64,000 nucleotides of DNA, from NCBI GenBank assembly GCA_938030745.1, contig CALHIP010000007.1, positions 13,180-77,179 of the forward strand, read 5' to 3'. The translations under genes and the position numbers were made by a program. Positions 5,923-50,542 of the stretch are shown in pieces. The DNA comes from an uncultured Patescibacteria group bacterium (GTDB lineage Bacteria; Patescibacteriota; Patescibacteriia; UBA2591; CALHIP01). Below the pieces are notes generated by a model. It did no database searches and was not told where the DNA came from. It saw only the letters and a list, made by a program, of their open reading frames with translations. Each line of letters begins with the position of its first letter. The stretch's first letter is position 1.

Positions 5923-6052
5923 ATCTGTGGATAACTTTTTTGATTTATTTGGTATAATAAAAACGATGAAAAATTATTCCCAAAAATTTAATTTCAGCCC
6001 CTTTTTCGCTAAGGGCCGGTCCGCCTGATGATTTTTAATTTGACTAAGGCGG

Positions 6053-6086
6053 AATCGGCTTCTAAAAAGAAGCCGATTTTTATTTT
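6053..6086 (+). terminator. rho-independent terminator hairpin
   Basis: The hairpin AATCGGCTTC-TAAAAA-GAAGCCGATT is followed by TTTTATTTTT. Confidence 0.6.
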
Positions 6087-6123
6087 TAGGTAAAAAAAAT
6101 AATTAATGAAAAGGAGGAAGAAA

Positions 6124-6294
6124 ATGAAAAAGAAGAAAACAAAACAAGATCCATGGTTTGAGCCATGGGAATCAAAAAAACAAAAAGAAAAAAAACACAA
6201 AAAAGGAGGAAAAAAAGGAAACCAAACAACCAAGAAAAATCAAACTTCACTGAATTTTCAGGAGTTATTCGGATCATTCGGTTTAGGCTGTTAA
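6124..6294 (+). CDS. small, very basic lysine-rich protein of about 56 aa; an alternative start is the upstream ATG at 6106
   Basis: The protein sequence is MKKKKTKQDPWFEPWESKKQKEKKHKKGGKKGNQTTKKNQTSLNFQELFGSFGLGC. A strong SD (AAAGGAGG) sits 6 nt upstream of the 6124 ATG. The gene is bracketed by two intrinsic terminators. Confidence 0.4.
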   Translation: MKKKKTKQDPWFEPWESKKQKEKKHKKGGKKGNQTTKKNQTSLNFQELFGSFGLGC

Positions 6295-6303
6295 CTTAAA
6301 ACC

Positions 6304-6339
6304 AGACGGGAGTAAAATTTACTCCCGTCTTTTTCTTTC
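6304..6339 (+). terminator. rho-independent terminator hairpin
   Basis: The hairpin AGACGGGAGT-AAAATTT-ACTCCCGTCT is followed by TTTTCTTTC. Confidence 0.7.
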
Positions 6340-6346
6340 ATCATTG

Positions 6347-6371
6347 TGTTAACACGTTAATCTGTTAATAC
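6347..6371. repeat. copy A of a 25-nt imperfect direct repeat (TGTTAACACGTTAATCTGTTAATAC); copy B is at 7276..7300
   Basis: Copies A and B are identical at 21 of 25 positions and lie in the same orientation. They flank the SplB-like gene on both sides. Confidence 0.5.
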
Positions 6372-6376
6372 ATTAC

Positions 6377-6400
6377 AAAATGTTCCACGTGGAACATTTT
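6377..6400. promoter_or_regulatory. 24-bp perfect palindrome AAAATGTTCCAC|GTGGAACATTTT
   Basis: It is an exact inverted repeat with a CACGTG core. It lies 32 bp downstream of the SplB-like stop codon. It could be an operator, or a hairpin terminator for the convergent transcripts. Confidence 0.4.
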
Positions 6401-6431
6401 AAAAATTTCGTTTATTTAAGCCAAAATTTGG

Positions 6432-7229
6432 CTAAAAAGTAATTTTAACCGGTATTTTGAAATATTTACCTAAAAATTCAATTTCTTCTTTTAATTGGTT
6501 TTCATACTTTCTTCTATTTTCAAAAAAGATTTTCTTATATTCAGATAAAATTTTTGGAAAATGTAATTTTAAAGCTTTTTCTAAACCTTGCCAATTTTCT
6601 TTTTTTGTATTTAGAGTATCAAACCAAATTCTATCTACTTTATTTTTTAAAATTCCAAAAATTTGCTTTAAATTAGTAAAATAAGGCAAAATAGGTCCAA
6701 TAAAGGCATAAGTTGAAAGACCAGCTTTTTTTAATTTCTTTAAAGCCTCAATTCTTTTTTCAATTGAACTTGCTCCTGGTTCTAAAATCATTTGGCTTCT
6801 TTTATTTAAAGTAGTAATGGTAAAACCAATTTTAATGAAAGAATAAAATTTTTTAAAAATATCTAAATCTTTTAAAACTAAATCAGATTTAGTTAAAATT
6901 GAAACAGGCCATTGATATTTTGCCAAAATTTTTAAACATTCTCGAGTAATCTGATATTGCTTTTCTAAAGGATTATAAGGATCAGTAATAGTGGAAAAGA
7001 AAACCTCTTCTTTTTCCTTTTCTGTAATTTCTTTTTCTAAAACTTCTGGCGCATTTAATTTAATTTCCAAAAAATTGCCCCATTTTTCTTCCCTTCCAAT
7101 TTTTTTAATAAAGTGTTGGTTATAACAATAAACACAACCATGAAGACAACCAATATAAGGATTTAAAGTATAGCCACCAAATTTGGAGCGAGTCAATATC
7201 GATTTTGCTTTAATAAAACGAATTTTCAT
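6432..7229 (-). CDS. SplB-like radical SAM protein (DNA repair photolyase / spore-photoproduct-lyase family, COG1533-like)
   Basis: The N-terminal motif is NPYIGCLHGCVYCY, which fits CxxxCxxC. It is about 265 aa and has no SPASM domain. Confidence 0.7.
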   Translation of the reverse strand: MKIRFIKAKSILTRSKFGGYTLNPYIGCLHGCVYCYNQHFIKKIGREEKWGNFLEIKLNAPEVLEKEITEKEKEEVFFSTITDPYNPLEKQYQITRECLKILAKYQWPVSILTKSDLVLKDLDIFKKFYSFIKIGFTITTLNKRSQMILEPGASSIEKRIEALKKLKKAGLSTYAFIGPILPYFTNLKQIFGILKNKVDRIWFDTLNTKKENWQGLEKALKLHFPKILSEYKKIFFENRRKYENQLKEEIEFLGKYFKIPVKITF

Positions 7230-7275
7230 ATAAATTATTCAATCTTCTATTTATTTTACCAAATTCATTATATTG

Positions 7276-21416: not shown

Positions 21417-21496
21417 ATAAGATATTGTTAAAAAAACTTTAAAGATTATAGCATAATTAAATTGACAAAACAAGAAGAATAAATTAAAATATTATT

Positions 21497-21673: not shown

Positions 21674-21678
21674 AACTT

Positions 21679-21750
21679 GCCCTCATAGCTCAATGGATAG
21701 AGCAGATCCGTCCTAAGGATAAGATGGGGGTTCAATTCCCTCTGAGGGCA
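21679..21750 (+). tRNA. tRNA-Arg (anticodon CCT)
   Basis: Cloverleaf features are acceptor GCCCTCA/TGAGGGC, anticodon loop GTCCTAA and T-loop GGTTCAATTCC. Confidence 0.75.
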
Positions 21751-21764
21751 TAAATTTTTTAATT

Positions 21765-21835
21765 GGGCTCATAGGTAAATGGTATACCGCAGTCTTCGCA
21801 TGACTGAATTCTGGGTTCGATTCCCAGTGAGTCCA
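21765..21835 (+). tRNA. tRNA-Ala (anticodon CGC) with the G3:U70 identity pair
   Basis: The acceptor is GGGCTCA/TGAGTCC, giving G3:U70. The anticodon loop is TTCGCAT. The T-loop is GGTTCGATTCC. Confidence 0.8.
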
Positions 21836-21838
21836 AAA

Positions 21839-21920
21839 GCCGCGGTGGCGAAATTGGAAAACGCACTGGGCTTAGGACCCAGGGGGGAAACCCTTGAGAG
21901 TTCGAGTCTCTCCCGCGGCA
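21839..21920 (+). tRNA. tRNA-Leu (anticodon TAG) with a long variable arm
   Basis: It is 82 nt. The anticodon loop is CTTAGGA and the T-loop is AGTTCGAGTCT. The long variable arm fits a class II tRNA. Confidence 0.85.
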
Positions 21921-21934
21921 AGAATAAAAATTTT

Positions 21935-22285
21935 ATGAAAACAAAAATTATTGTTTTGATTTTCATTATCTTTTTTGGTTTGCTAGTTAATTATGAAGAA
22001 GAGACTGGTTCTTTTTTGAAAATTTTTCCAATTGTTAAAAATCCATCTTTAGCTTTTATATCTCTTTATAAAAATAACAACAAAAATTTCTTTCAAAAAG
22101 AAAACTTCTGGGGTTGGCCATTTCCTTATTGGTTTAAAAAAGAATTTAATTTAAAATCTTTATTTTTCGATTTAATTTTTTATTTAATTATCTGGTTAAT
22201 TCTTATTTTCTTCTGGTGGTTTATTTCTGCTTTTAAAAGATTTCATCAAAAAAGGAAAAAACCTCCTTATAAATTTACTTTGTAA
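21935..22285 (+). CDS. hypothetical membrane protein of about 116 aa, taken from the downstream portion of ORF 21779..22285
   Basis: Hydrophobic N- and C-terminal segments flank an aromatic-rich middle. The upstream part of the tracked ORF overlaps the tRNAs and is not coding. Confidence 0.3.
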   Translation: MKTKIIVLIFIIFFGLLVNYEEETGSFLKIFPIVKNPSLAFISLYKNNNKNFFQKENFWGWPFPYWFKKEFNLKSLFFDLIFYLIIWLILIFFWWFISAFKRFHQKRKKPPYKFTL

Positions 22286-22303
22286 AATTATCCACAGTTT
22301 TTC

Positions 22304-22332
22304 TTGACTTTTTAAATTTTATTCTTTATAAT
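22304..22332 (+). promoter_or_regulatory. sigma70-type promoter for the 23S-5S rRNA transcript (TTGACT-N17-TATAAT)
   Basis: The hexamers read directly are TTGACT at 22304-22309 and TATAAT at 22327-22332. A perfect DnaA box (TTATCCACA) abuts at 22288-22296. Confidence 0.55.
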
Positions 22333-22382
22333 ATAATTAAAATACAATGTTTATGAAACCAAAAAACCTTAAATTAAAAATT

Positions 22383-22465
22383 CCAAGCGGTTAATTTTGG
22401 TCATTTTCGCCTTAACCAAAAAAACCGCTTGGAAAAGCGGTTTTTTGGTTTCCGCTCTTTTAAAA
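22383..22465 (+). promoter_or_regulatory. rRNA leader with mutually exclusive hairpins, one of them terminator-like, and a boxA-like element (CGCTCTTTTAAAA)
   Basis: CCAAGCGGTT (22383-92) can pair with AACCGCTTGG (22423-32). Alternatively ACCGCTT-GGAA-AAGCGGT plus a T-tract at 22424-22449 forms an intrinsic-terminator-like hairpin. AGCGG/CCGCT precedes the boxA-like sequence at 22453-22465. Confidence 0.4.
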
Positions 22466-22487
22466 TTTTAAAAATAAAGTCTTATAC

Positions 22488-25468
<2,981 letters not shown>

Positions 25469-25511
25469 CCCATATAAGCCTTTATTTTTAAAAATTTAAT
25501 TTTTCTCATTT

Positions 25512-25634
<123 letters not shown>

Positions 25635-25654
25635 AAATGGGAAAAATTATTTCA

Positions 25655-26200
25655 ATGTCTTTTATATATTTTTTATTATTTTTATTATTTCTTTCTCTCT
25701 TTTCTCTTTTTTTGTTTTATACTTTTCTTTTAATTGGTTATTTAATAACTAAAGTTCCGTTTGTTTCTTTATCAAAAAAAGATATTCATAAAATTTTAAA
25801 AATGATGAATCTTAAAGAGGGAGAAGTTTTGGTTGATTTAGGTTGTGGTGATTCTCAATTTTTAATTGAAGCAGAGAAAAAATATAAAGTAAAGACTATT
25901 GGTTATGAACTTTCTTTAACTGCCTTTATCCTTTCAAAGATTAATATTTTACTTAAAAAAGCAAAGACGAAAATCTATTTAAAAGATTTCTTTAAAATTA
26001 ATCTCTCTTACTCCGATGTTATTTTTTGTTATCTTTTTCCAAACGTGATGGCTCGTCTTTCAGAAAAATTGAAAAAAGAAGTAAAAACAGGAACAAAAAT
26101 CTTTTCTTTAGCTTTTCCTTTGCCAGATTGGCCTAATGAAAAAATATTATATTTAGATGAGAAAAACAAAAAAGGAAAAATTTTTATTTATCAGAAATAA
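25655..26200 (+). CDS. class I SAM-dependent methyltransferase with an N-terminal membrane anchor
   Basis: Motif I is VLVDLGCGDSQ. The N-terminal segment is hydrophobic. The tracked start at 25637 overlaps the 5S 3' end, so an internal Met was used. Confidence 0.6.
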   Translation: MSFIYFLLFLLFLSLFSLFLFYTFLLIGYLITKVPFVSLSKKDIHKILKMMNLKEGEVLVDLGCGDSQFLIEAEKKYKVKTIGYELSLTAFILSKINILLKKAKTKIYLKDFFKINLSYSDVIFCYLFPNVMARLSEKLKKEVKTGTKIFSLAFPLPDWPNEKILYLDEKNKKGKIFIYQK

Positions 26201-26203
26201 TTT

Positions 26204-27487
26204 ATGAGATATATTGCCGATTTTCATCTTCATTCAAAATATTCCCGTGCTACTTCCCAATTAATGGATTTAAAACATTTAGATGAATGGGCAAGATTAA
26301 AAGGAATTCAAATTTTAGGTACTGGTGATTTTACCCATCCAGAATGGTTTAAAGAATTAAAAGAAAAACTAGAGCCTCTTAGTAATGGACTTTTTAAATT
26401 AAAAACCGCTAAAGATTTAGCGGTTTCTTTTATTTTAACAACTGAAGTCTCTTGTATTTATCCAAAAAAAGGTGCTCTTCGTCGGATTCATTTAATTGTT
26501 TTTTTTCCTGATTTTAAATGTGTTGAGAGATTTAATACTCAACTTTCTTGGTCTGGTAATTTAAAAGCTGATGGTCGACCAATTTTAGGTTTAGATGCTA
26601 AAGAAATTTTAAAAATGGCTTTAGATATCTCACCAGATGCCTTAGTTATTCCAGCTCATGTTTGGACGCCTTGGTTTTCAATTTTTGGATCAAAATCTGG
26701 TTTTGATTCAATTGAAGAATGTTTTGATGAGTTAACACCAGAAATTTATGCTATCGAAACAGGCCTTTCAAGTGATCCAGCAATGAATTGGCGATTATCA
26801 AAATTAGATAAAGTAGCAATTATCTCCTCTTCTGATTCTCATTCACTTCAAAATCTAGGTCGAGAAGCAACTGTTTTTGAGTTTTTAAATTATCCAAATT
26901 ATCTTGATATTGTTAAAGCAATTAAAAATAGTTCTATTCTTCAACGACAATTAATGTTAGATCAACCAACAATCGCTTATACTATTGAATTTTTTCCTGA
27001 AGAAGGAAAATATCATTTTGATGGTCATCGATTATGCAATGTTTCTTTTTCACCATCAGAGACAAAGAAAAGAGGTGGTAATTGTCCTGTTTGCGGTAAA
27101 CCTTTAACTATTGGTGTGATGCATCGGGTAGAAGATTTAGCTGATCGTCCAGAAGGATTTATTCCAGAAAAATCTGTTCCTTTCAAAAGTTTAGTTCCTT
27201 TAAGAGAAATCATCGCTGAGGCATTAAATGTAGATAAAAACTCAAAACTAGTAGAAAATGAATACCTTTCTTTAGTAAAAAGAGGAGGTAATGAATTTAA
27301 AATTCTTTTAGATCTAAATGAAGAAGAAATAAAAAAGATTGCTTCAAAAAGGATTGTTGAAGGAATTATTAAAATGAGAAATGGAGAAGTAACAAAAATT
27401 GCTGGTTATGATGGTGTTTATGGCAAAATCAGTGTTTTCGGGAAAAAAGAAGAAAAAAAAGAAAACAAGCAAGGTGTTCTCTTTTAA
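26204..27487 (+). CDS. PHP-domain nuclease of the endonuclease Q (EndoQ / TIGR00375) family with a C-terminal zinc ribbon
   Basis: The N-terminal PHP motif is YIADFHLHSKYSRATSQLM...ILGTGDFTHPEW. Other motifs are SSDSHS, LGREATVFEF and KYHFDGHRLCNV...CPVCGKPLTIGVMHRVEDLADRP. These match the order of conserved EndoQ blocks. Confidence 0.65.
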   Translation: MRYIADFHLHSKYSRATSQLMDLKHLDEWARLKGIQILGTGDFTHPEWFKELKEKLEPLSNGLFKLKTAKDLAVSFILTTEVSCIYPKKGALRRIHLIVFFPDFKCVERFNTQLSWSGNLKADGRPILGLDAKEILKMALDISPDALVIPAHVWTPWFSIFGSKSGFDSIEECFDELTPEIYAIETGLSSDPAMNWRLSKLDKVAIISSSDSHSLQNLGREATVFEFLNYPNYLDIVKAIKNSSILQRQLMLDQPTIAYTIEFFPEEGKYHFDGHRLCNVSFSPSETKKRGGNCPVCGKPLTIGVMHRVEDLADRPEGFIPEKSVPFKSLVPLREIIAEALNVDKNSKLVENEYLSLVKRGGNEFKILLDLNEEEIKKIASKRIVEGIIKMRNGEVTKIAGYDGVYGKISVFGKKEEKKENKQGVLF

Positions 27488-27498
27488 TTTTTGAAATT

Positions 27499-28302
27499 AT
27501 GAGAATTTTATTTAGTAAAATAATTGTTGAAAAAATTTATCAGGATCTTAAGAAAGAAAGAAAAAAATTAAAAATCAAACCTGGTCTGGCAGTGATTATG
27601 ATTGGTAAAAATAAGACCTTACAAATTTTCCTCAATTTAAAACAAAGATCAGCAAGAAAACTTAATTTCTATTTTAAAAAATTTTTACTTCCAGTAAAAG
27701 TAAAAGAAGAAAAAGTAATCAGTTTAATTAATAATTTGAATCAAGATAAAAAGATTCATGGTATTATTGTTCAATTTCCTTTACCAAGAAAATTTAATCC
27801 TTCCAAAATCATCAAAACAATTTTGCCAGAAAAAGATATCGATGGTTTCCATCCAAAGACAAAATTTATTCCGCCAGTCCACCAAGCTATTTTAAAACTT
27901 CTTTCTTCTTATAAAATTAAAATAAAAAATAAGAAAGTTGTTATTTTAGCTAACTCTTTGATTTTTGCAAAACCGCTTCAAAAAATTTTTAAAAAAAGAG
28001 GAGCAAAAGTAAAAATAATCTTAAAAAGATATTCATCTCAATTAAAGAAGGCAGATATTTTAATTATTGCTATTGGCAGACCAAAATTTTTAAAAAAGGA
28101 AATGATTAAAAAGGGAGCAGTAATTATTGATGTTGGCTACTCAAGAATTAAAAAAAAGGCATTTGGTGATGTTGATTTTGAAAGTTGTGCTGAAAAAGCT
28201 AGTGCTCTTTCGCCAGTTCCTGGTGGAATAGGTCCTTTAACTGTTGCCTATTTAATGAAGAACGTTTTTGAATCAGCTAAAATGCTTTCTAAGATAAAAT
28301 AG
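27499..28302 (+). CDS. folD: bifunctional methylenetetrahydrofolate dehydrogenase / methenyl-THF cyclohydrolase
   Basis: Conserved blocks are IHGIIVQFPLP, DIDGFHP, AVIIDVG and PVPGGIGPLTVAYL. Confidence 0.85.
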   Translation: MRILFSKIIVEKIYQDLKKERKKLKIKPGLAVIMIGKNKTLQIFLNLKQRSARKLNFYFKKFLLPVKVKEEKVISLINNLNQDKKIHGIIVQFPLPRKFNPSKIIKTILPEKDIDGFHPKTKFIPPVHQAILKLLSSYKIKIKNKKVVILANSLIFAKPLQKIFKKRGAKVKIILKRYSSQLKKADILIIAIGRPKFLKKEMIKKGAVIIDVGYSRIKKKAFGDVDFESCAEKASALSPVPGGIGPLTVAYLMKNVFESAKMLSKIK

Positions 28303-35311: not shown

Positions 35312-36322
35312 TTATTCTTTAAAAATTTTATTTTTTTCTTTATCTATTTTAATTTTAATATCTAAAAATTTCTCTAAAAGCCAAATATGAGTTAAAAGAT
35401 GATTAGTAATTTTTGAAACAGTAAAAGCAAATGGTTTTTTACTAATAGCTAAATAAAGGACAATTTGGTCAGCTAAATAAGGATCGATTACTTTTTCTGA
35501 TTGATAATAATCAGAAAATTGTTGAGCTACTTCTTGACCTACTTTCTCAGCTGGCTTACCTTTTTCACCTAAAGAGGAAAAACCAGCTAAGATATTTTCA
35601 AATTTTACTTTCAAAAAAACAAAAGTTCCAGCTGATAATGCTTCTACCCTTTCTGCTAATATATTTATTCCTGAAAAATTTTTAAGAAAAGATTGAAGAG
35701 CATTTTTCTGACGTTCGGCAATAGAAAAAGGTAAATTTGCGACAACTGATAAACCAGAAATTTCTTCTATTTTTCCTCTTTCTAAAAAATCACTTGCCAC
35801 TAATTTCTGTATTGGCTGAACAAACAATCTTATTCTTCCTCCTCCTTTTGGATAAAAACCATATTTTTCTAATTTTGCTTCTGCTTTTATTCCTAATTTT
35901 TCTATCATTGGTAAAAAAACTTCGGAAAAATAATGAAAAGGCGGAGCCAACGGATTATGAGTTCCACCAACAATTAAAACTTCAGAAGGATGTTTTGAAA
36001 AAGAAAGAGGTAATAAAATAGTCTGAGCTACTAATGTTGTTGAACCAGCTGTACCAATATCAAATTCAAATCTACCAAATTTTATTTTTTTTGGTTCAAA
36101 TCTTAAAATTTTTGAGCCAATTTTTGCACCAGAAACTTTTGCCTGAGAAATTTCCTCAGCTGCTTTAACAGCAACTAAATGTTGAGCCTGAAGTCCTGGC
36201 TTTTTTCTTTTTGCCCGAATATTGAAAATTTCAATTGCTTGAGCAGCTAAAACTGATAAAGAAAGAGAAGTTCTTAAAATTTGCCCACCACCCTCACCAT
36301 AACTTCCATCTATTCTTAACAT
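35312..36322 (-). CDS. rtcA: RNA 3'-terminal phosphate cyclase
   Basis: The N-terminus is MLRIDGSYGEGGGQILRTSLSLS. It has the size expected of RtcA. Confidence 0.8.
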   Translation of the reverse strand: MLRIDGSYGEGGGQILRTSLSLSVLAAQAIEIFNIRAKRKKPGLQAQHLVAVKAAEEISQAKVSGAKIGSKILRFEPKKIKFGRFEFDIGTAGSTTLVAQTILLPLSFSKHPSEVLIVGGTHNPLAPPFHYFSEVFLPMIEKLGIKAEAKLEKYGFYPKGGGRIRLFVQPIQKLVASDFLERGKIEEISGLSVVANLPFSIAERQKNALQSFLKNFSGINILAERVEALSAGTFVFLKVKFENILAGFSSLGEKGKPAEKVGQEVAQQFSDYYQSEKVIDPYLADQIVLYLAISKKPFAFTVSKITNHLLTHIWLLEKFLDIKIKIDKEKNKIFKE

Positions 36323-38794: not shown

Positions 38795-39487
38795 TTAATT
38801 TTCGGACCAACCTGTCTGCAGGAGGCAGGAATTGATCCAAAAAATAATTTAAGGAGCTCGACCTTTCTAAAATTGAATTTAAATTCTAACTCCTTAAGGT
38901 ATAAATAAAAGTTATTCTTTTTAATGCCGTGATATTTCATAAAATGTTCTTTGGCAAAAGTCCAGAAACTTTCTACTCTATTGATATGGGTCTAATGATT
39001 TTTGGGATGAATTAGATATTTTTATTTGTTAATTTTGCTGGCCAAAAAGTTTTAAATCATGATAGTTTCTGAATCTATCAGTATAGAAGATGCTTCCTTT
39101 TTCAGTTTTTTCTTTAAGCAATGTTTCTGATTTAACATTTGGAACAATGATGGTATAAATACGATTACTTCGCTCTAAAATGCCTAAAACAATGACCTTT
39201 TCAGCTGCGCCTTGACCACCGAAATAGGCTTCGTCAATTTCTCCTTTTAATTTTTCAAATTCCTGATCTAGAAATTCAACAATTTTTTCTCTGAACCTTT
39301 GATATCTTTGACTAACCGTATTGTAGCTCAAATTTAGAATTTTTGCTAACTGAAATCTCTAAAGGAAATATTTTAAAACTTCTAAATCTGTTTTAATTTT
39401 TCTGAGACTATACTTTTTCTGACATTTTTGCCATTTAATTCTCTTATCTTTAAGCCGGTAAAGATAGTTCTGACCACAAAAAAACAT
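38795..39487 (-). pseudogene. decayed IS1595-family (ISXO2-like) transposase gene with multiple frameshifts and stops; a remnant insertion sequence
   Basis: Three out-of-frame fragments were found. The first is an N-terminal zinc ribbon (MFFCGQNYLYRLKDKRIKWQKCQKKYSLRKIKTDL) with an SD (AGAGGAAG). The second is a middle DDE fragment (EIDEAYFGGQ...VLGILERSNRIYTIIVPNVKSETLLKEKTEKGSIFYTDRFRNY). The third is a C-terminal fragment (THINRVESFWTFAKEHFMKYHGIKKNNFYLYLKELEFKFN). Confidence 0.65.
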
Positions 39488-39948: not shown

Positions 39949-40227
39949 TTACTCGATTATCTTATAAACAATATCTCCTTCTTTGACTGGTTGATCTACT
40001 TTCAAACCAATTGATTGGCCTTTGCTTGCTTTTTCAACATTTTTGTGTTCAATCTGCATTGAAGAGACAGTTTGAGTAAATTCCTGACCATGACCAACAA
40101 TTTTGATTGTGTCTCCAACTTTAATTTCATCACTTAATTCAACAACTGCAACTGAAATTTTGTTGAAATAGTGAGTAATTTTTCCAATTTGAACTTCTGG
40201 CATAAATTTATATTTATTTTTATTCAC
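39949..40227 (-). CDS. standalone EF-Tu domain-2-like beta-barrel mini-protein of 92 aa; its start overlaps the rtcB stop
   Basis: GKITHYFNKISVAVVELSDEIKVGDTIKIVG ... QSIGLKVDQPVKEGDIVYK resembles the GTP_EFTU_D2 barrel of EF-Tu/IF2/SelB. It overlaps rtcB by 8 nt. Confidence 0.5.
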   Translation of the reverse strand: MNKNKYKFMPEVQIGKITHYFNKISVAVVELSDEIKVGDTIKIVGHGQEFTQTVSSMQIEHKNVEKASKGQSIGLKVDQPVKEGDIVYKIIE

Positions 40228-41662
40228 CTTTAATAACTGCTAAAGGTATAAGTTTAGCTACTTTTTTTGATAAACCTGCTTTATGAACAACATCAACAAC
40301 CTCATCAATATTTTTATATGCCTCTGGTGCTTCTTCAGCTAAGCCTTTTAATGACCAACATTTAACAATAATTCCTTTTGCTTGTAATTTTTTAATTATT
40401 TCCTGACCAGAGATTGATCGAATTGCTGCATGTCTAGACATTGTTCGACCAGCTCCATGGGTGGTAGAATAAAATGCTTCTTCTCCTTGGCTAGTTCCGA
40501 CTAAAACATATGAAGCAGTTCCCATTGAGCCAGGAATTAAAACTGGCTGGCCAACCTCCCGATATCTTTGAGGAATCTCTGGATGATGAGGAGGAAAGGC
40601 TCTGGTTGAACCCTTTCGATGCATTGCTACTTCTGTTTCTTTACCATCAATAATATATTTTTCTTTTTTAATAATATTGTGAGCGACATCGTATAATAAT
40701 TGCAAAGAACTTTTTTCACCAAAAATACTTTTCCAAGCCTTTCTAACAAAATAAGTAATCATTTGACGATTTGCCCAGGCATAATTTGCTGCCGAAGCTG
40801 AAGCAGATAAACCTCTTTGACCTTCATTAGAATTAAAGGGTACACAGGCAAACTCTCGATCAGGAACTCTTATTTTATATTTCTCCATCAATCTCATAAA
40901 TTCATTTATATAATCAGTTGCTACTTGATGACCAAGTCCACGACTACCACAATGAATCATTATAACAATTTGATCTTTGAATAACCCAAAAACTTGAGCT
41001 ACTTCTTCATTAAAAATTTCTTCTACTTTTTGAATTTCAAGAAAATGATTTCCTGAACCAAGTGTTCCTACTTGATCGCGACCTCTATTTTTCGCTTTAA
41101 TTGAAACAAAAGAAGCATCAGCCCATTCTAATCTACCATTTGCCTCACAGTTTTCGACATCCTCTTTTTCACCATAACCTTTCTCAACTAAATATCTTGC
41201 TCCACCTTCCAAAATTTTATCAATCTGTTCAATTGAGAGTTTAATTTGCCTACCTCTTCCTAATCCAGATGGAACTTCCTTTTGAATCTCAGTTGCTAAT
41301 TTTTCTAAATAAGGTTTTGTTTCCTTTTCAGAATATTCTGAAAGGAGTAATCTTACTCCACAATTTATATCATAACCTTGCATTCCCGGAGAAATTATTC
41401 CGTCAGAAATCCTTATCGCTGCTACTCCACCAATTGGACTGGAATAACCTTCATGACAATCTGGCATGGCGATTCCGTATTTTTGGATTCCTGGTAAAGT
41501 ACAGAGATTTATTAATTGATAAAGTGATTTATCCCTGAAAACATCTTCTAACATTTTCTCTGAAACATAAATTCTTGCTGGCACTCGCATGTCAGCTCGA
41601 AAGCTTTTAGGGATTTCCCATAAATAATCATTAATTTTTTTAAAATCTTTTTTAGAGATCAT
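40220..41662 (-). CDS. rtcB: RNA-splicing ligase RtcB (3'-phosphate / 5'-hydroxyl RNA ligase)
   Basis: Motifs are MPDCHEGYSSPIGGV, HNAGR-type motifs (HGAGRTMSR), and the metal-binding histidines characteristic of RtcB. Confidence 0.9.
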   Translation of the reverse strand: MISKKDFKKINDYLWEIPKSFRADMRVPARIYVSEKMLEDVFRDKSLYQLINLCTLPGIQKYGIAMPDCHEGYSSPIGGVAAIRISDGIISPGMQGYDINCGVRLLLSEYSEKETKPYLEKLATEIQKEVPSGLGRGRQIKLSIEQIDKILEGGARYLVEKGYGEKEDVENCEANGRLEWADASFVSIKAKNRGRDQVGTLGSGNHFLEIQKVEEIFNEEVAQVFGLFKDQIVIMIHCGSRGLGHQVATDYINEFMRLMEKYKIRVPDREFACVPFNSNEGQRGLSASASAANYAWANRQMITYFVRKAWKSIFGEKSSLQLLYDVAHNIIKKEKYIIDGKETEVAMHRKGSTRAFPPHHPEIPQRYREVGQPVLIPGSMGTASYVLVGTSQGEEAFYSTTHGAGRTMSRHAAIRSISGQEIIKKLQAKGIIVKCWSLKGLAEEAPEAYKNIDEVVDVVHKAGLSKKVAKLIPLAVIKGE

Positions 41663-42075
41663 ACATCGAAAACAACAATAAGAATAAATTTATCCTTTTC
41701 CTTTTTAAAAGAAAATTCATACCAGGTTACTCCTTTAATTTCCGTTGTAAATCTTTTAACTTTTTGACCGAAAATTTCTCCTTCTAATTTTTTCTCCGTA
41801 GATTTTTTTATTTTTACTTTTTCATAAAATGAATCATTTAAATCCATTTGATAAACTAATTCAGCTAAAAAATTGAAAATTAAATTTTCAAAATTTTCTC
41901 CTTCAATTTTAAAAGGTGTAACAATTTCTTCTTTTAAAAGTTCTGGTCGAGTTCCTTCTTTGATTGCTAACAAAATATTATTTAAAATTTCTTCTAAATT
42001 TTTACCCCAAACTTTAATTTTAAGATCAGCTGGGTGTTCTAAAATCTCATAATTTTTTGAGGCCAAGTTTTTCAT
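41659..42075 (-). CDS. archease (RtcB activator / chaperone)
   Basis: The N-terminal motif is YEILEHPADLKIKVWG (consensus YE.LEHTAD). It is about 138 aa. It lies immediately upstream of rtcB and overlaps it by 4 nt. Confidence 0.75.
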   Translation of the reverse strand: MKNLASKNYEILEHPADLKIKVWGKNLEEILNNILLAIKEGTRPELLKEEIVTPFKIEGENFENLIFNFLAELVYQMDLNDSFYEKVKIKKSTEKKLEGEIFGQKVKRFTTEIKGVTWYEFSFKKEKDKFILIVVFDV

Positions 42076-45372: not shown

Positions 45373-45657
45373 ATGAAGAACTACGAACTCCTTTCTCTTA
45401 TTTCCTCAAAAATTGATGAAAAACAACTTCCTTTAATTGGAGAAAAGATTGAAGGAATAATTAAAGATTTAAAAGGTAATTTAATCAATAAAGAAAATCT
45501 TGGTAAAAAAGAAATTGCTTATCCGATTAAACATGAAAATAAAGGTTATTTTTTAGCTTTTCGCTTTACACTTGAACCAAAAGAAGTAAAAAAATTAGAA
45601 GAGAAGTTAAAAAATATTTCAGAAATTTTAAGATTCCAAATTATTAAAAAAATATGA
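45373..45657 (+). CDS. rpsF: 30S ribosomal protein S6 (bS6)
   Basis: The sequence is MKNYELLSLISSKIDEKQ...IAYPIKHENKGYFLAFRF. A TTGACA-N16-TAAAAT promoter lies upstream. Confidence 0.85.
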   Translation: MKNYELLSLISSKIDEKQLPLIGEKIEGIIKDLKGNLINKENLGKKEIAYPIKHENKGYFLAFRFTLEPKEVKKLEEKLKNISEILRFQIIKKI

Positions 45658-50197: not shown

Positions 50198-50230
50198 AAA
50201 ATCCCGATCCCAATAAAGAATCGGGATTTT
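50198..50230. terminator. bidirectional intrinsic terminator between the convergent gdh and hup genes
   Basis: AAAATCCCGA ... TCGGGATTTT forms a 10-bp stem with a 13-nt loop. T-rich sequence lies on both sides. Confidence 0.6.
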
Positions 50231-50266
50231 GTTATCCAAAATAGGCTTAGTAAATAGAAATAATTC

Positions 50267-50542
50267 TTACTTTAATGCGTCCTTAAGGGCTTTACCAGGT
50301 TTAAATTTTGGTCTTTTCATTGAAGGAATCTGGATTTTTTCTCCAGTTTTTGGATTAACACCACTTCGAGCAGCCCTTGTTTTAACTGAAAAAGTACCAA
50401 AGCCAGCAATTGCCACTTCCTCACCTGCCTTTAAAGCCTCGGTAACAATATCAATAAAAGCATCTAAATATCTGGCTGCTTCAGCTTTAGAAGAACCACC
50501 AGCCTTTTCCATTAATTTTTGAATTAATTCTGCTTTGTTCAT
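50267..50542 (-). CDS. hup: nucleoid-associated protein HU
   Basis: MNKAELIQKLMEKAG...AIAGFGTFSVKTRAARSGVNPKTGEKIQIPSMKRPKFKPGKALKDAL. Confidence 0.9.
   Translation of the reverse strand: MNKAELIQKLMEKAGGSSKAEAARYLDAFIDIVTEALKAGEEVAIAGFGTFSVKTRAARSGVNPKTGEKIQIPSMKRPKFKPGKALKDALK

Follow-up and report, generated by a model that had tools for sequence, protein, structure and literature searches.

A stand-alone bacterial-type endonuclease Q homolog encoded between a membrane-anchored methyltransferase gene and folD in a CPR genome

Introduction

Endonuclease Q (EndoQ) of P. furiosus (PfuEndoQ; PDB 5ZB8, with DNA complexes 7K30 to 7K33) consists of PHP, zinc-binding, and C-terminal helical domains. 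EndoQ cuts immediately 5′ of a lesion, whereas endonuclease V (Nfi) cuts the second bond 3′ of it (PMC5961232). Endonuclease V is likewise lesion specific, acts on deaminated bases, and provides alternative excision repair without a glycosylase, but its fold is unrelated. A PIP box at the C-terminus of archaeal EndoQ mediates its binding to PCNA (Shiraishi et al. 2016, PMC4858679).

Bacterial EndoQ is also described. The beta-clamp motifs of bacterial homologs, CPR included, have already been tabulated (PMC4858679, Suppl. Fig. S1). The homologs listed there come from Parcubacteria (KKP93828, with the motif 412-QKSLF-416), Daviesbacteria (KKQ65637), Woesebacteria (KKQ98233), Thermodesulfovibrio, and Dictyoglomus, and the stand-alone bacterial and CPR proteins are 405 to 464 aa long and end in a Q-x-x-L-F motif. 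Nicking at dU, dI, and AP sites has been demonstrated for the EndoQ of Bacillus pumilus and B. subtilis (Shiraishi et al. 2017, as cited in PMC5961232), and the activity therefore exists in Bacteria; its authors assign bacterial EndoQs to two families distinct from the archaeal one. Older review literature confines EndoQ to Euryarchaeota and "a few bacteria" (e.g., PMC8438529), and our literature search found the link between EndoQ and CPR/Patescibacteria in no main text, only in the supplementary table of PMC4858679.

We describe here an EndoQ-family gene from a 64-kb stretch of CPR DNA (the window, meaning the whole stretch that was analyzed). A preliminary description, made from the sequence alone, had recognized it as an EndoQ-like PHP nuclease with a zinc ribbon. 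It did so correctly, and the gene is a routine member of a known family.

Gene location and local layout

The window has a GC content of 30.6% and carries ordinary housekeeping genes of the kind usual near dnaA on a CPR chromosome: those for TyrRS, a class I tRNA synthetase, PBP1, TsaD/TsaE, DciA, DnaA, PilB/PilT, NusB, RNase III, an SMC-like protein, RtcA/RtcB/archease, RecX, SSB, FtsK, the CCA-adding enzyme, and RpoB/RpoC. The EndoQ-family gene and its immediate neighbors are as follows.

25516 to 25631, + strand: 5S rRNA, end of a 23S-5S unit (context; Rfam RF00001, 82.3 bits)
25637 to 26200, + strand: class I SAM methyltransferase with an N-terminal transmembrane helix (context; 187 aa)
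26204 to 27487, + strand: EndoQ-family gene, stand-alone bacterial form (427 aa plus stop codon; ORF list, PDB, TIGR00375, and Foldseek matches)
27499 to 28302, + strand: folD, methylene-THF dehydrogenase/cyclohydrolase (context)

Rfam places the 23S rRNA at 22492 to 25469 and found no 16S rRNA within the 64-kb window. In the ORF list, the EndoQ reading frame (26204 to 27487, +) starts with ATG, ends with TAA, and encodes 427 aa. All of the motifs quoted in the preliminary description were found in it: DFHLHSKYSRATS at residues 6 to 18, GTGDFTHPEW at 39 to 48, SSDSHS at 209 to 214, LGREATVFEF at 218 to 227, and CPVCGKP at 294 to 300.

Gaps of 5, 3, and 11 nt separate, in turn, the 5S rRNA from the methyltransferase ATG, the methyltransferase stop from the EndoQ ATG, and the EndoQ stop from folD. 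The gene had been placed directly after rrf together with a membrane-anchored methyltransferase; the neighbors and the hydrophobic N-terminus of the methyltransferase stand (Kyte-Doolittle 2.72 for the strongly hydrophobic segment, with an N-terminal hydrophobic or transmembrane segment in 31 of 33 methyltransferase homologs), but the gene that touches rrf is the methyltransferase and not EndoQ. A terminator scan found no terminator-like hairpin between the 5S rRNA and EndoQ, so it is possible that transcription reads through from the 5S rRNA into the methyltransferase and EndoQ genes. The number of terminator-like sites is what chance would give, and a hairpin at 26403 to 26426 falls within the EndoQ ORF.

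Family assignment by sequence and fold

Among all PDB sequences, phmmer matched the protein solely to P. furiosus EndoQ (5zb8, 7k30 to 7k33). The match is full length (5zb8/7k30, E = 6.5e-52; query residues 5 to 411 against Pfu 5 to 382), with an identity to the characterized Pfu enzyme of about 35%. The EndoQ profile search that had been proposed as a check gave TIGR00375 as the only NCBIfam match (E = 2.7e-49, 168.6 bits, model positions 2 to 374 of 374). The two E values (6.5e-52 for PDB 5zb8 and 2.7e-49 for TIGR00375) put EndoQ homology well beyond chance. TIGR00375 is a hypothetical equivalog with a curated NCBI cutoff of 326.6 bits, and the score of 168.6 bits lies below it; the protein is therefore not filed under TIGR00375 as such and, by its score, is a homolog that this narrow equivalog model does not take in. 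Pfam, in its precomputed annotation, assigns PF27218 (MJ0043_C), which is the C-terminal domain of the EndoQ family.

An AlphaFold (AF2) model was built with an 82-sequence homolog alignment (pLDDT 91.4, pTM 0.90), in which only residues 416 to 427 are disordered. Foldseek searches of the PDB ranked the PfuEndoQ chains (5zb8, 7k30) at the top, with E values of 5e-37 to 4e-34 and TM scores of 0.80 to 0.89 over all chains; for the best matches, 5zb8 and 7k30 (E = 5e-37), the TM scores are 0.83 to 0.89. The next PHP protein was PsfC (E = 3e-8, TM 0.38), and below it came BAD_1165, RNase AM, and Pol III alpha, all matching over the barrel only with TM scores of at most 0.38.

These results bear on whether the protein could be a member of some other PHP family (histidinol phosphatase, Pol X/Pol III PHP, or an RNase AM/YcdX-type phosphoesterase) and resemble EndoQ only superficially. 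The Pfam-A search, which gave just a marginal PHP_C match of 20.7 bits, leaves some room for that reading; homology to EndoQ nevertheless extends end to end over three domains, the precomputed Pfam match is specific to the EndoQ family, and no other NCBIfam family was matched. A better fit to another PHP family had been named in advance as the result that would overturn the assignment. None was found, since non-EndoQ PHP proteins match far more weakly (E = 3e-8 or worse) and over the barrel only, and such a family was rejected as a candidate on NCBIfam, Pfam, and fold comparisons alike. We regard membership of a different PHP family as extremely unlikely, and the best sequence match, the best fold match, and the only NCBIfam match all agree on an EndoQ-family PHP nuclease with a zinc-binding module.

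Domains and conserved residues

Mapping onto the PfuEndoQ numbering divides the protein as follows.

26204 to 26995, + strand: PHP nuclease domain (residues 1 to 264)
26996 to 27196, + strand: zinc-binding domain (residues 265 to 331; ligands H275, C278, C294, C297)
27197 to 27448, + strand: C-terminal helical domain (residues 332 to 415; PF27218 MJ0043_C, precomputed Pfam)
27449 to 27469, + strand: disordered Lys/Glu-rich linker (residues 416 to 422; pLDDT below 50 for residues 416 to 427)
27470 to 27484, + strand: QGVLF, putative beta-clamp-binding pentapeptide (residues 423 to 427, extreme C-terminus)

The seven PHP metal ligands H8, H10, E81, H96, H152, D211, and H213 correspond to Pfu H8, H10, E76, H84, H139, D193, and H195 and are invariant in both alignments examined (16 diverse and 82 close homologs). 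The Trp wedge, Pfu W144, is kept as W157. The lesion pocket of the window protein is formed by H152, T155, E185, T186, G187, L188, S209, and D211, and its side chains are identical to those of Pfu H139, T142, E167, L170, and D193; the invariance of the metal ligands across the 16 diverse and 82 close homologs extends to the W144 position and these pocket side chains. There are two pocket substitutions relative to Pfu, L168 to T186 and N191 to S209. In the crystal structure, from which the residue roles are taken, the main-chain contributors to the Pfu pocket are L168, G169, and N191, and L168 and N191 contribute main-chain atoms only (PMC5961232). Short insertions relative to Pfu are present at residues 67 to 71, 84 to 90, and 244 to 258.

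All four predicted zinc ligand positions are occupied. The Pfu ligands C249, C252, C268, and C271 form a C4 site, whereas the window protein has His-Cys3, with H275 replacing Cys249. His occupies the first ligand position in 120/120 close homologs and in 144/150 representatives, and it is therefore a trait of the clade and not a peculiarity of the window gene. An alignment of 16 CPR, helicase-fused, and archaeal sequences likewise shows "DGHRxC...CPxC" to be common to all bacterial-type sequences, so that the predicted His-Cys3 site is bacterial-clade-wide and was rejected as a novelty. The C-terminal helical domain aligns with Pfu residues 304 to 382 and ends in conserved GYDGVYGKISVF strands; its helices at residues 333 to 392 are modeled with pLDDT above 90.

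C-terminal tail and clamp motif

The linker varies in sequence and length among homologs, and a motif conforming to Qxx[LIMF][FLIV] stands at the C-terminus of 118 of 119 close homologs, versus 4.6% of shuffled tails. QGVLF fits the bacterial beta-clamp-binding consensus QL[SD]LF. The Pfu PIP box, in contrast, reads QRTLLQYI. Three loci from Micrarchaeota (DPANN archaea) encode a bacterial-type EndoQ with a PIP-like end, QKSLDEFF, QRGLGEYL, or QKTLGEF, and the terminal motif thus follows the type of clamp that the host has. These endings lend small independent support to the clamp-binding reading.

Clamp binding by the window EndoQ, read from the five-residue motif by itself, is putative. The most likely role of the QGVLF tail is to hold the enzyme on the beta sliding clamp, as the PIP box holds the archaeal enzyme on PCNA. 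Such motifs were published in 2016, and the clamp motif was accordingly rejected as a novelty.

Distribution in Bacteria

A word-index search returned at least 8,000 candidates. The 120 homologs listed share 59 to 76% identity with the window protein and are about 415 aa each. The named ones among the matches listed carry the name "endonuclease Q family protein" or, if the record is older, "DNA helicase UvrD", and their sources are Patescibacteria, Nealsonbacteria, Wildermuthbacteria, and Parcubacteria. The window protein differs in nothing of substance from the stand-alone bacterial and CPR EndoQs already described, and its nearest deposited relatives, among the matches listed, are 76% identical.

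When 1.84 billion 50%-identity representatives were searched exhaustively, 3,702 clusters were obtained at an E value of at most 1e-3 and 1,022 at an E value of at most 1e-30. Most of the top representatives are 1,000 to 1,200 aa long and combine an EndoQ module at the N-terminus with a UvrD/PcrA-type SF1 helicase, with examples from Sorangium cellulosum and Chloroflexi; the existence of these fusions accounts for the outdated "UvrD" names found on stand-alone proteins. In fusions from S. cellulosum (AUX22689.1), Chloroflexi, Desulfovibrio, and Geobacter, the EndoQ module is 48 to 58% identical to the window protein, shares its His-Cys3 zinc site, and is directly followed by GQxxLF. What sets the fusions apart from it is a further SF1 helicase, about 650 aa in length; the window protein has no helicase match, and its gene ends with TAA after residue 427 and is followed by folD. 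Some EndoQ homologs are interrupted by LAGLIDADG inteins.

A scan of representative genomes, one for each GTDB species, confirmed EndoQ relatives in at least 547 of them. The best 80 of these at least 547 come from Patescibacteria classes, Omnitrophota, Nitrospirota, Thermodesulfobacteriota, Myxococcota, Chloroflexota, Aminicenantes, WOR-3, KSB1, Planctomycetota, and Bipolaricaulota, with a few from Micrarchaeota. The preliminary description had taken the family to be mainly archaeal and its occurrence in a small CPR genome to be unusual. The first view does not hold against this spread over many bacterial phyla and the clusters found at the stricter threshold; nor does the second, as close relatives already bear the NCBI name "endonuclease Q family protein [Patescibacteria]" and CPR homologs appear in Suppl. 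Fig. S1 of PMC4858679. Both views mirror the older reviews and not the data. Many bacterial groups, the ultra-small CPR among them, commonly carry EndoQ, so that the finding is correct and ordinary.

Gene neighborhood across relatives

The closest relative among the matches listed (L002, 76% identity) has the order 23S rRNA, 5S rRNA, transmembrane methyltransferase, EndoQ, folD, CutA1. A 69% relative has a 23S rRNA with LAGLIDADG ORFs, then 5S rRNA, a homolog of the methyltransferase (P0284), a 208-aa ORF, EndoQ, and CutA1, and folD was not found at its EndoQ locus. At about 60% identity, no rRNA, methyltransferase, or folD was found near EndoQ, which is flanked there by RtcA, GreA, HD-domain proteins, MgtC, or transporters. 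When ORFs within 4 kb of EndoQ were clustered across 87 loci, no neighbor family occurred in more than 14 of them (16%), and folD occurred in 2. The methyltransferase belongs to a small family of class I SAM enzymes of about 180 aa with a conserved N-terminal transmembrane helix; it adjoins EndoQ only in the window and in L002, and in L003 it follows rrf. Its distant homologs, from Thermosulfurimonas, a Thermodesulfobacteriota MAG, and another MAG, do not lie beside EndoQ.

EndoQ lies tightly inside a pyrimidine-biosynthesis operon in 13 or 14 Omnitrophota/Planctomycetota loci, and in about 7 CPR-type loci EndoQ is followed 1 to 2 kb downstream by Pol X.

In principle, the methyltransferase, EndoQ, and folD could work together as one functional unit linked to the rRNA operon, for instance by cotranscription with the 23S-5S unit, with the methyltransferase marking the substrate of the nuclease. 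The very tight spacing (5, 3, and 11 nt), the absence of a terminator-like hairpin from the 5S rRNA to EndoQ, and the repetition of the order in L002 are what would be expected of such a unit. Tight gene packing is normal in small genomes, however, and the arrangement decays quickly, with an intervening ORF and the loss of folD at 69% identity and the loss of rRNA, methyltransferase, and folD at about 60%. The rarity of folD and of every other neighbor family among the 87 loci points the same way. Both the pairing of the methyltransferase with the nuclease and a linkage to the rRNA operon were rejected on these comparisons, which include the distant methyltransferase homologs lying apart from EndoQ. 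The comparative context thus largely refutes a functional unit of this kind, which we consider very unlikely. The order rrf, methyltransferase, EndoQ, folD is kept only in the closest relatives and is therefore no evidence of functional coupling; judged from these comparisons, it is lineage-specific synteny in a compact genome, and the significance that the preliminary description had attached to this setting falls away.

Proposed function and repair context

With homology, fold, conserved catalytic and pocket side chains, a disordered tail, and a conserved terminal motif all observed, the ORF very probably encodes a functional, stand-alone bacterial-type EndoQ. The Pol X genes downstream of EndoQ in CPR-type loci and the activity of the Bacillus enzymes also speak for this reading. 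The TIGR00375 score below the cutoff, the identity of about 35% to the Pfu enzyme, and the His in place of a Cys zinc ligand count against it.

We infer the substrate range, cleavage position, clamp binding, and downstream steps from the archaeal and Bacillus enzymes, and the mechanism is modeled by homology on the characterized P. furiosus, T. kodakarensis, M. acetivorans, and Bacillus proteins. QGVLF would recruit EndoQ to DNA through the beta clamp, and the zinc-binding and C-terminal helical domains would bind duplex DNA. Trp157 would insert as a wedge, and a deaminated base (uracil, hypoxanthine, or xanthine) or an abasic sugar would be flipped into the pocket of H152, T155, E185, L188, and D211. 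The PHP zinc center (H8, H10, E81, H96, H152, D211, and H213) would then hydrolyze the phosphodiester bond immediately 5′ of the lesion, and the nick would be passed to a polymerase, a flap nuclease or 5′-exonuclease, and a ligase.

The EndoQ fold might instead serve another main substrate or pathway, such as helicase-coupled fork or flap processing or the cutting of foreign DNA with uracil or modified bases. The fusion of most bacterial representatives of the clade to a UvrD/PcrA-type SF1 helicase, which hints at a helicase-coupled role undescribed for archaeal EndoQ, would suit this alternative, as would the TIGR00375 score under the equivalog cutoff; moreover, no assayed or biochemically characterized enzyme of the CPR/helicase-fused clade is apparent in the literature. 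Against it, every lesion-pocket side chain and the Trp wedge are conserved, and lesion recognition by base flipping should therefore be retained. In addition, the window protein has no helicase domain, no helicase gene adjoins it, and the recurrent neighbors of EndoQ are housekeeping genes. We judge another main substrate quite improbable and favor an EndoQ acting on deaminated bases and abasic sites.

A further question is whether this enzyme stands in for other repair initiators, since the preliminary description had suggested an alternative base-excision route. The UDG, EndoV, HhH-GPD, Xth, and Nfo families had no match among the window ORFs scanned, which were those of at least 90 aa, clear of the rRNA genes and of any longer overlapping gene; three ORFs of 92 to 97 aa, at 39949 to 40227, 45373 to 45657, and 50229 to 50522, were left out of the scan. 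UDG is reported to be unevenly distributed in CPR (PMC8406219). A clamp-tethered EndoQ could be what chiefly, or solely, initiates the repair of uracil, hypoxanthine, and AP sites in this CPR lineage, replacing Ung and EndoV, and its placement beside folD or in a pyr operon could represent coregulation with nucleotide metabolism; the proposal is compatible with the lack of a UDG or EndoV match among the window ORFs scanned, with the reported unevenness of UDG in CPR, and with the embedding in pyr operons, which is real. An HhH-GPD glycosylase encoded 4 kb from the EndoQ gene of one relative weighs against it, and we consider it unlikely. Were it true, the position of EndoQ beside folD here and in the pyr operon in Omnitrophota would reflect the metabolism that sets the dUTP/dTTP ratio.

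Significance

The structure and mechanism of the family, its occurrence in Bacteria and CPR, and its clamp motif are already known from publications, and relatives of the window protein are already named at NCBI. EndoQ is widespread in uncultivated bacterial phyla, contrary to the picture given in reviews. The window EndoQ is small, stand-alone, and mesophilic and would be a reasonable assay candidate for the CPR/helicase-fused clade.

The rRNA unit of the window comprises 23S and 5S genes only, and no 16S rRNA gene is present anywhere in the 64 kb. Genes for tRNA-Arg(CCT), tRNA-Ala(CGC), and tRNA-Leu(TAG) precede the unit, and near-consensus sigma-70-like promoters lie before both the tRNAs and the 23S gene. 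The last two tRNA genes are overlapped by a listed 168-amino-acid (aa) open reading frame (ORF). If a real gene exists there, its start is probably an internal Met after 21920 and its product probably a small membrane protein, encoded just upstream of the 23S promoter.

Features of the window (window coordinates)
21462-21490, sigma-70-like promoter before the tRNA genes
21678-25631, tRNA genes and 23S-5S rRNA unit
21779-22285, listed 168-aa ORF
22304-22332, sigma-70-like promoter before 23S
25637-26200, transmembrane (TM)-anchored methyltransferase
35312-36322, RtcA
39029-39331, IS1595-type transposase fragment
40220-42075, RtcB and archease

Just 5 nt separate the 3′ end of the 5S gene from the first ATG (25637) of the methyltransferase ORF (window 25631-25660), leaving no space for a ribosome-binding site or terminator. 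The corresponding gap in L002, the locus of the closest EndoQ relative, is 57 nt. Translation may instead begin at a second ATG, at 25655, and the ORF could be transcribed by read-through of the rRNA operon. The best NCBIfam match of the TM-anchored methyltransferase is NF041081, an archaeal protein-lysine N-methyltransferase model, at 67 bits, far below the cutoff; DOT1 and PrmA are also matched weakly. The enzyme may act on protein and not on nucleic acid. Its family is small (33 matches) and also has members in Thermodesulfobacteriota.

The window additionally carries a set of RNA repair genes, RtcA and RtcB, the latter followed by archease; a short (100-aa) IS1595-type transposase fragment is located in the interval between RtcA and RtcB. 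In L003, the locus of a relative with 69% identity, three LAGLIDADG homing-endonuclease ORFs lie within the 23S rRNA gene upstream of EndoQ (L003 1-3210). The last 1,220 Rfam model positions of this 23S gene are spread across 3.2 kb, and the ORFs are presumably intron-borne.

Inteins containing LAGLIDADG domains interrupt some EndoQ homologs themselves (P0122, P0124, P0125, P0127, and P0265). Pfam was run on three of these, P0122, P0124, and P0127; the insertion lies near the catalytic His152 region in P0124 and after about residue 193 to 214 in P0122 and P0127, the latter of which appears to hold two inteins.

In fusions of EndoQ to a UvrD-type helicase (P0123, P0126, P0129, P0133, and others), the linker directly after the EndoQ module retains GQxxLF. 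This motif is additional to the far C-terminal motif of the fusions, already tabulated in 2016 (PMC4858679). Its retention means that the fusions may have two putative clamp-binding sites or may have originated from a stand-alone gene already ending in the motif.

Bacterial-type EndoQ, with about 52% identity, is also encoded in three metagenome-assembled genomes of Micrarchaeota (DPANN archaea), and the His zinc ligand was found in two of the three proteins. The C termini of these proteins are PIP-box-like (QRGLGEYL, QKSLDEFF, and QKTLGEF) and not QxxLF, which suggests that the gene was transferred between domains and that its clamp motif then adapted.

In about seven to eight loci, mostly CPR, EndoQ is followed 1 to 3 kb downstream by a same-strand gene for Pol X, which has a pol-beta-like domain and a PHP domain. 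This polymerase could plausibly partner EndoQ by filling the gap at the nick that EndoQ makes.

EndoQ homolog loci (local coordinates)
Micrarchaeota EndoQ: L043 6001-7248; L050 2407-3621; L065 6001-7230
Pol X downstream of EndoQ: L014 10439-12163; L016 8700-10460; L032 8929-10710; L034 7113-8885; L007 10419 onward; L013, L024, L028
EndoQ in pyrimidine operon, at about 6001-7240 in each: L021, L027, L031, L040, L048, L080
EndoQ in pyrimidine operon, further loci: L029, L041, L042, L047, L054, L056, L057, L086

In 13 to 14 Omnitrophota and Planctomycetota genomes, EndoQ is tightly enclosed in a pyrimidine biosynthesis operon, with intergenic gaps of 0 to 40 nt and the gene order PRTase (pyrR/upp-like), pyrB, pyrC, EndoQ, and then pyrK-pyrD or LDcluster4-carB. 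We know of no description of this placement. The colocation of UMP synthesis genes with an endonuclease acting on uracil in DNA may be a meaningful association.
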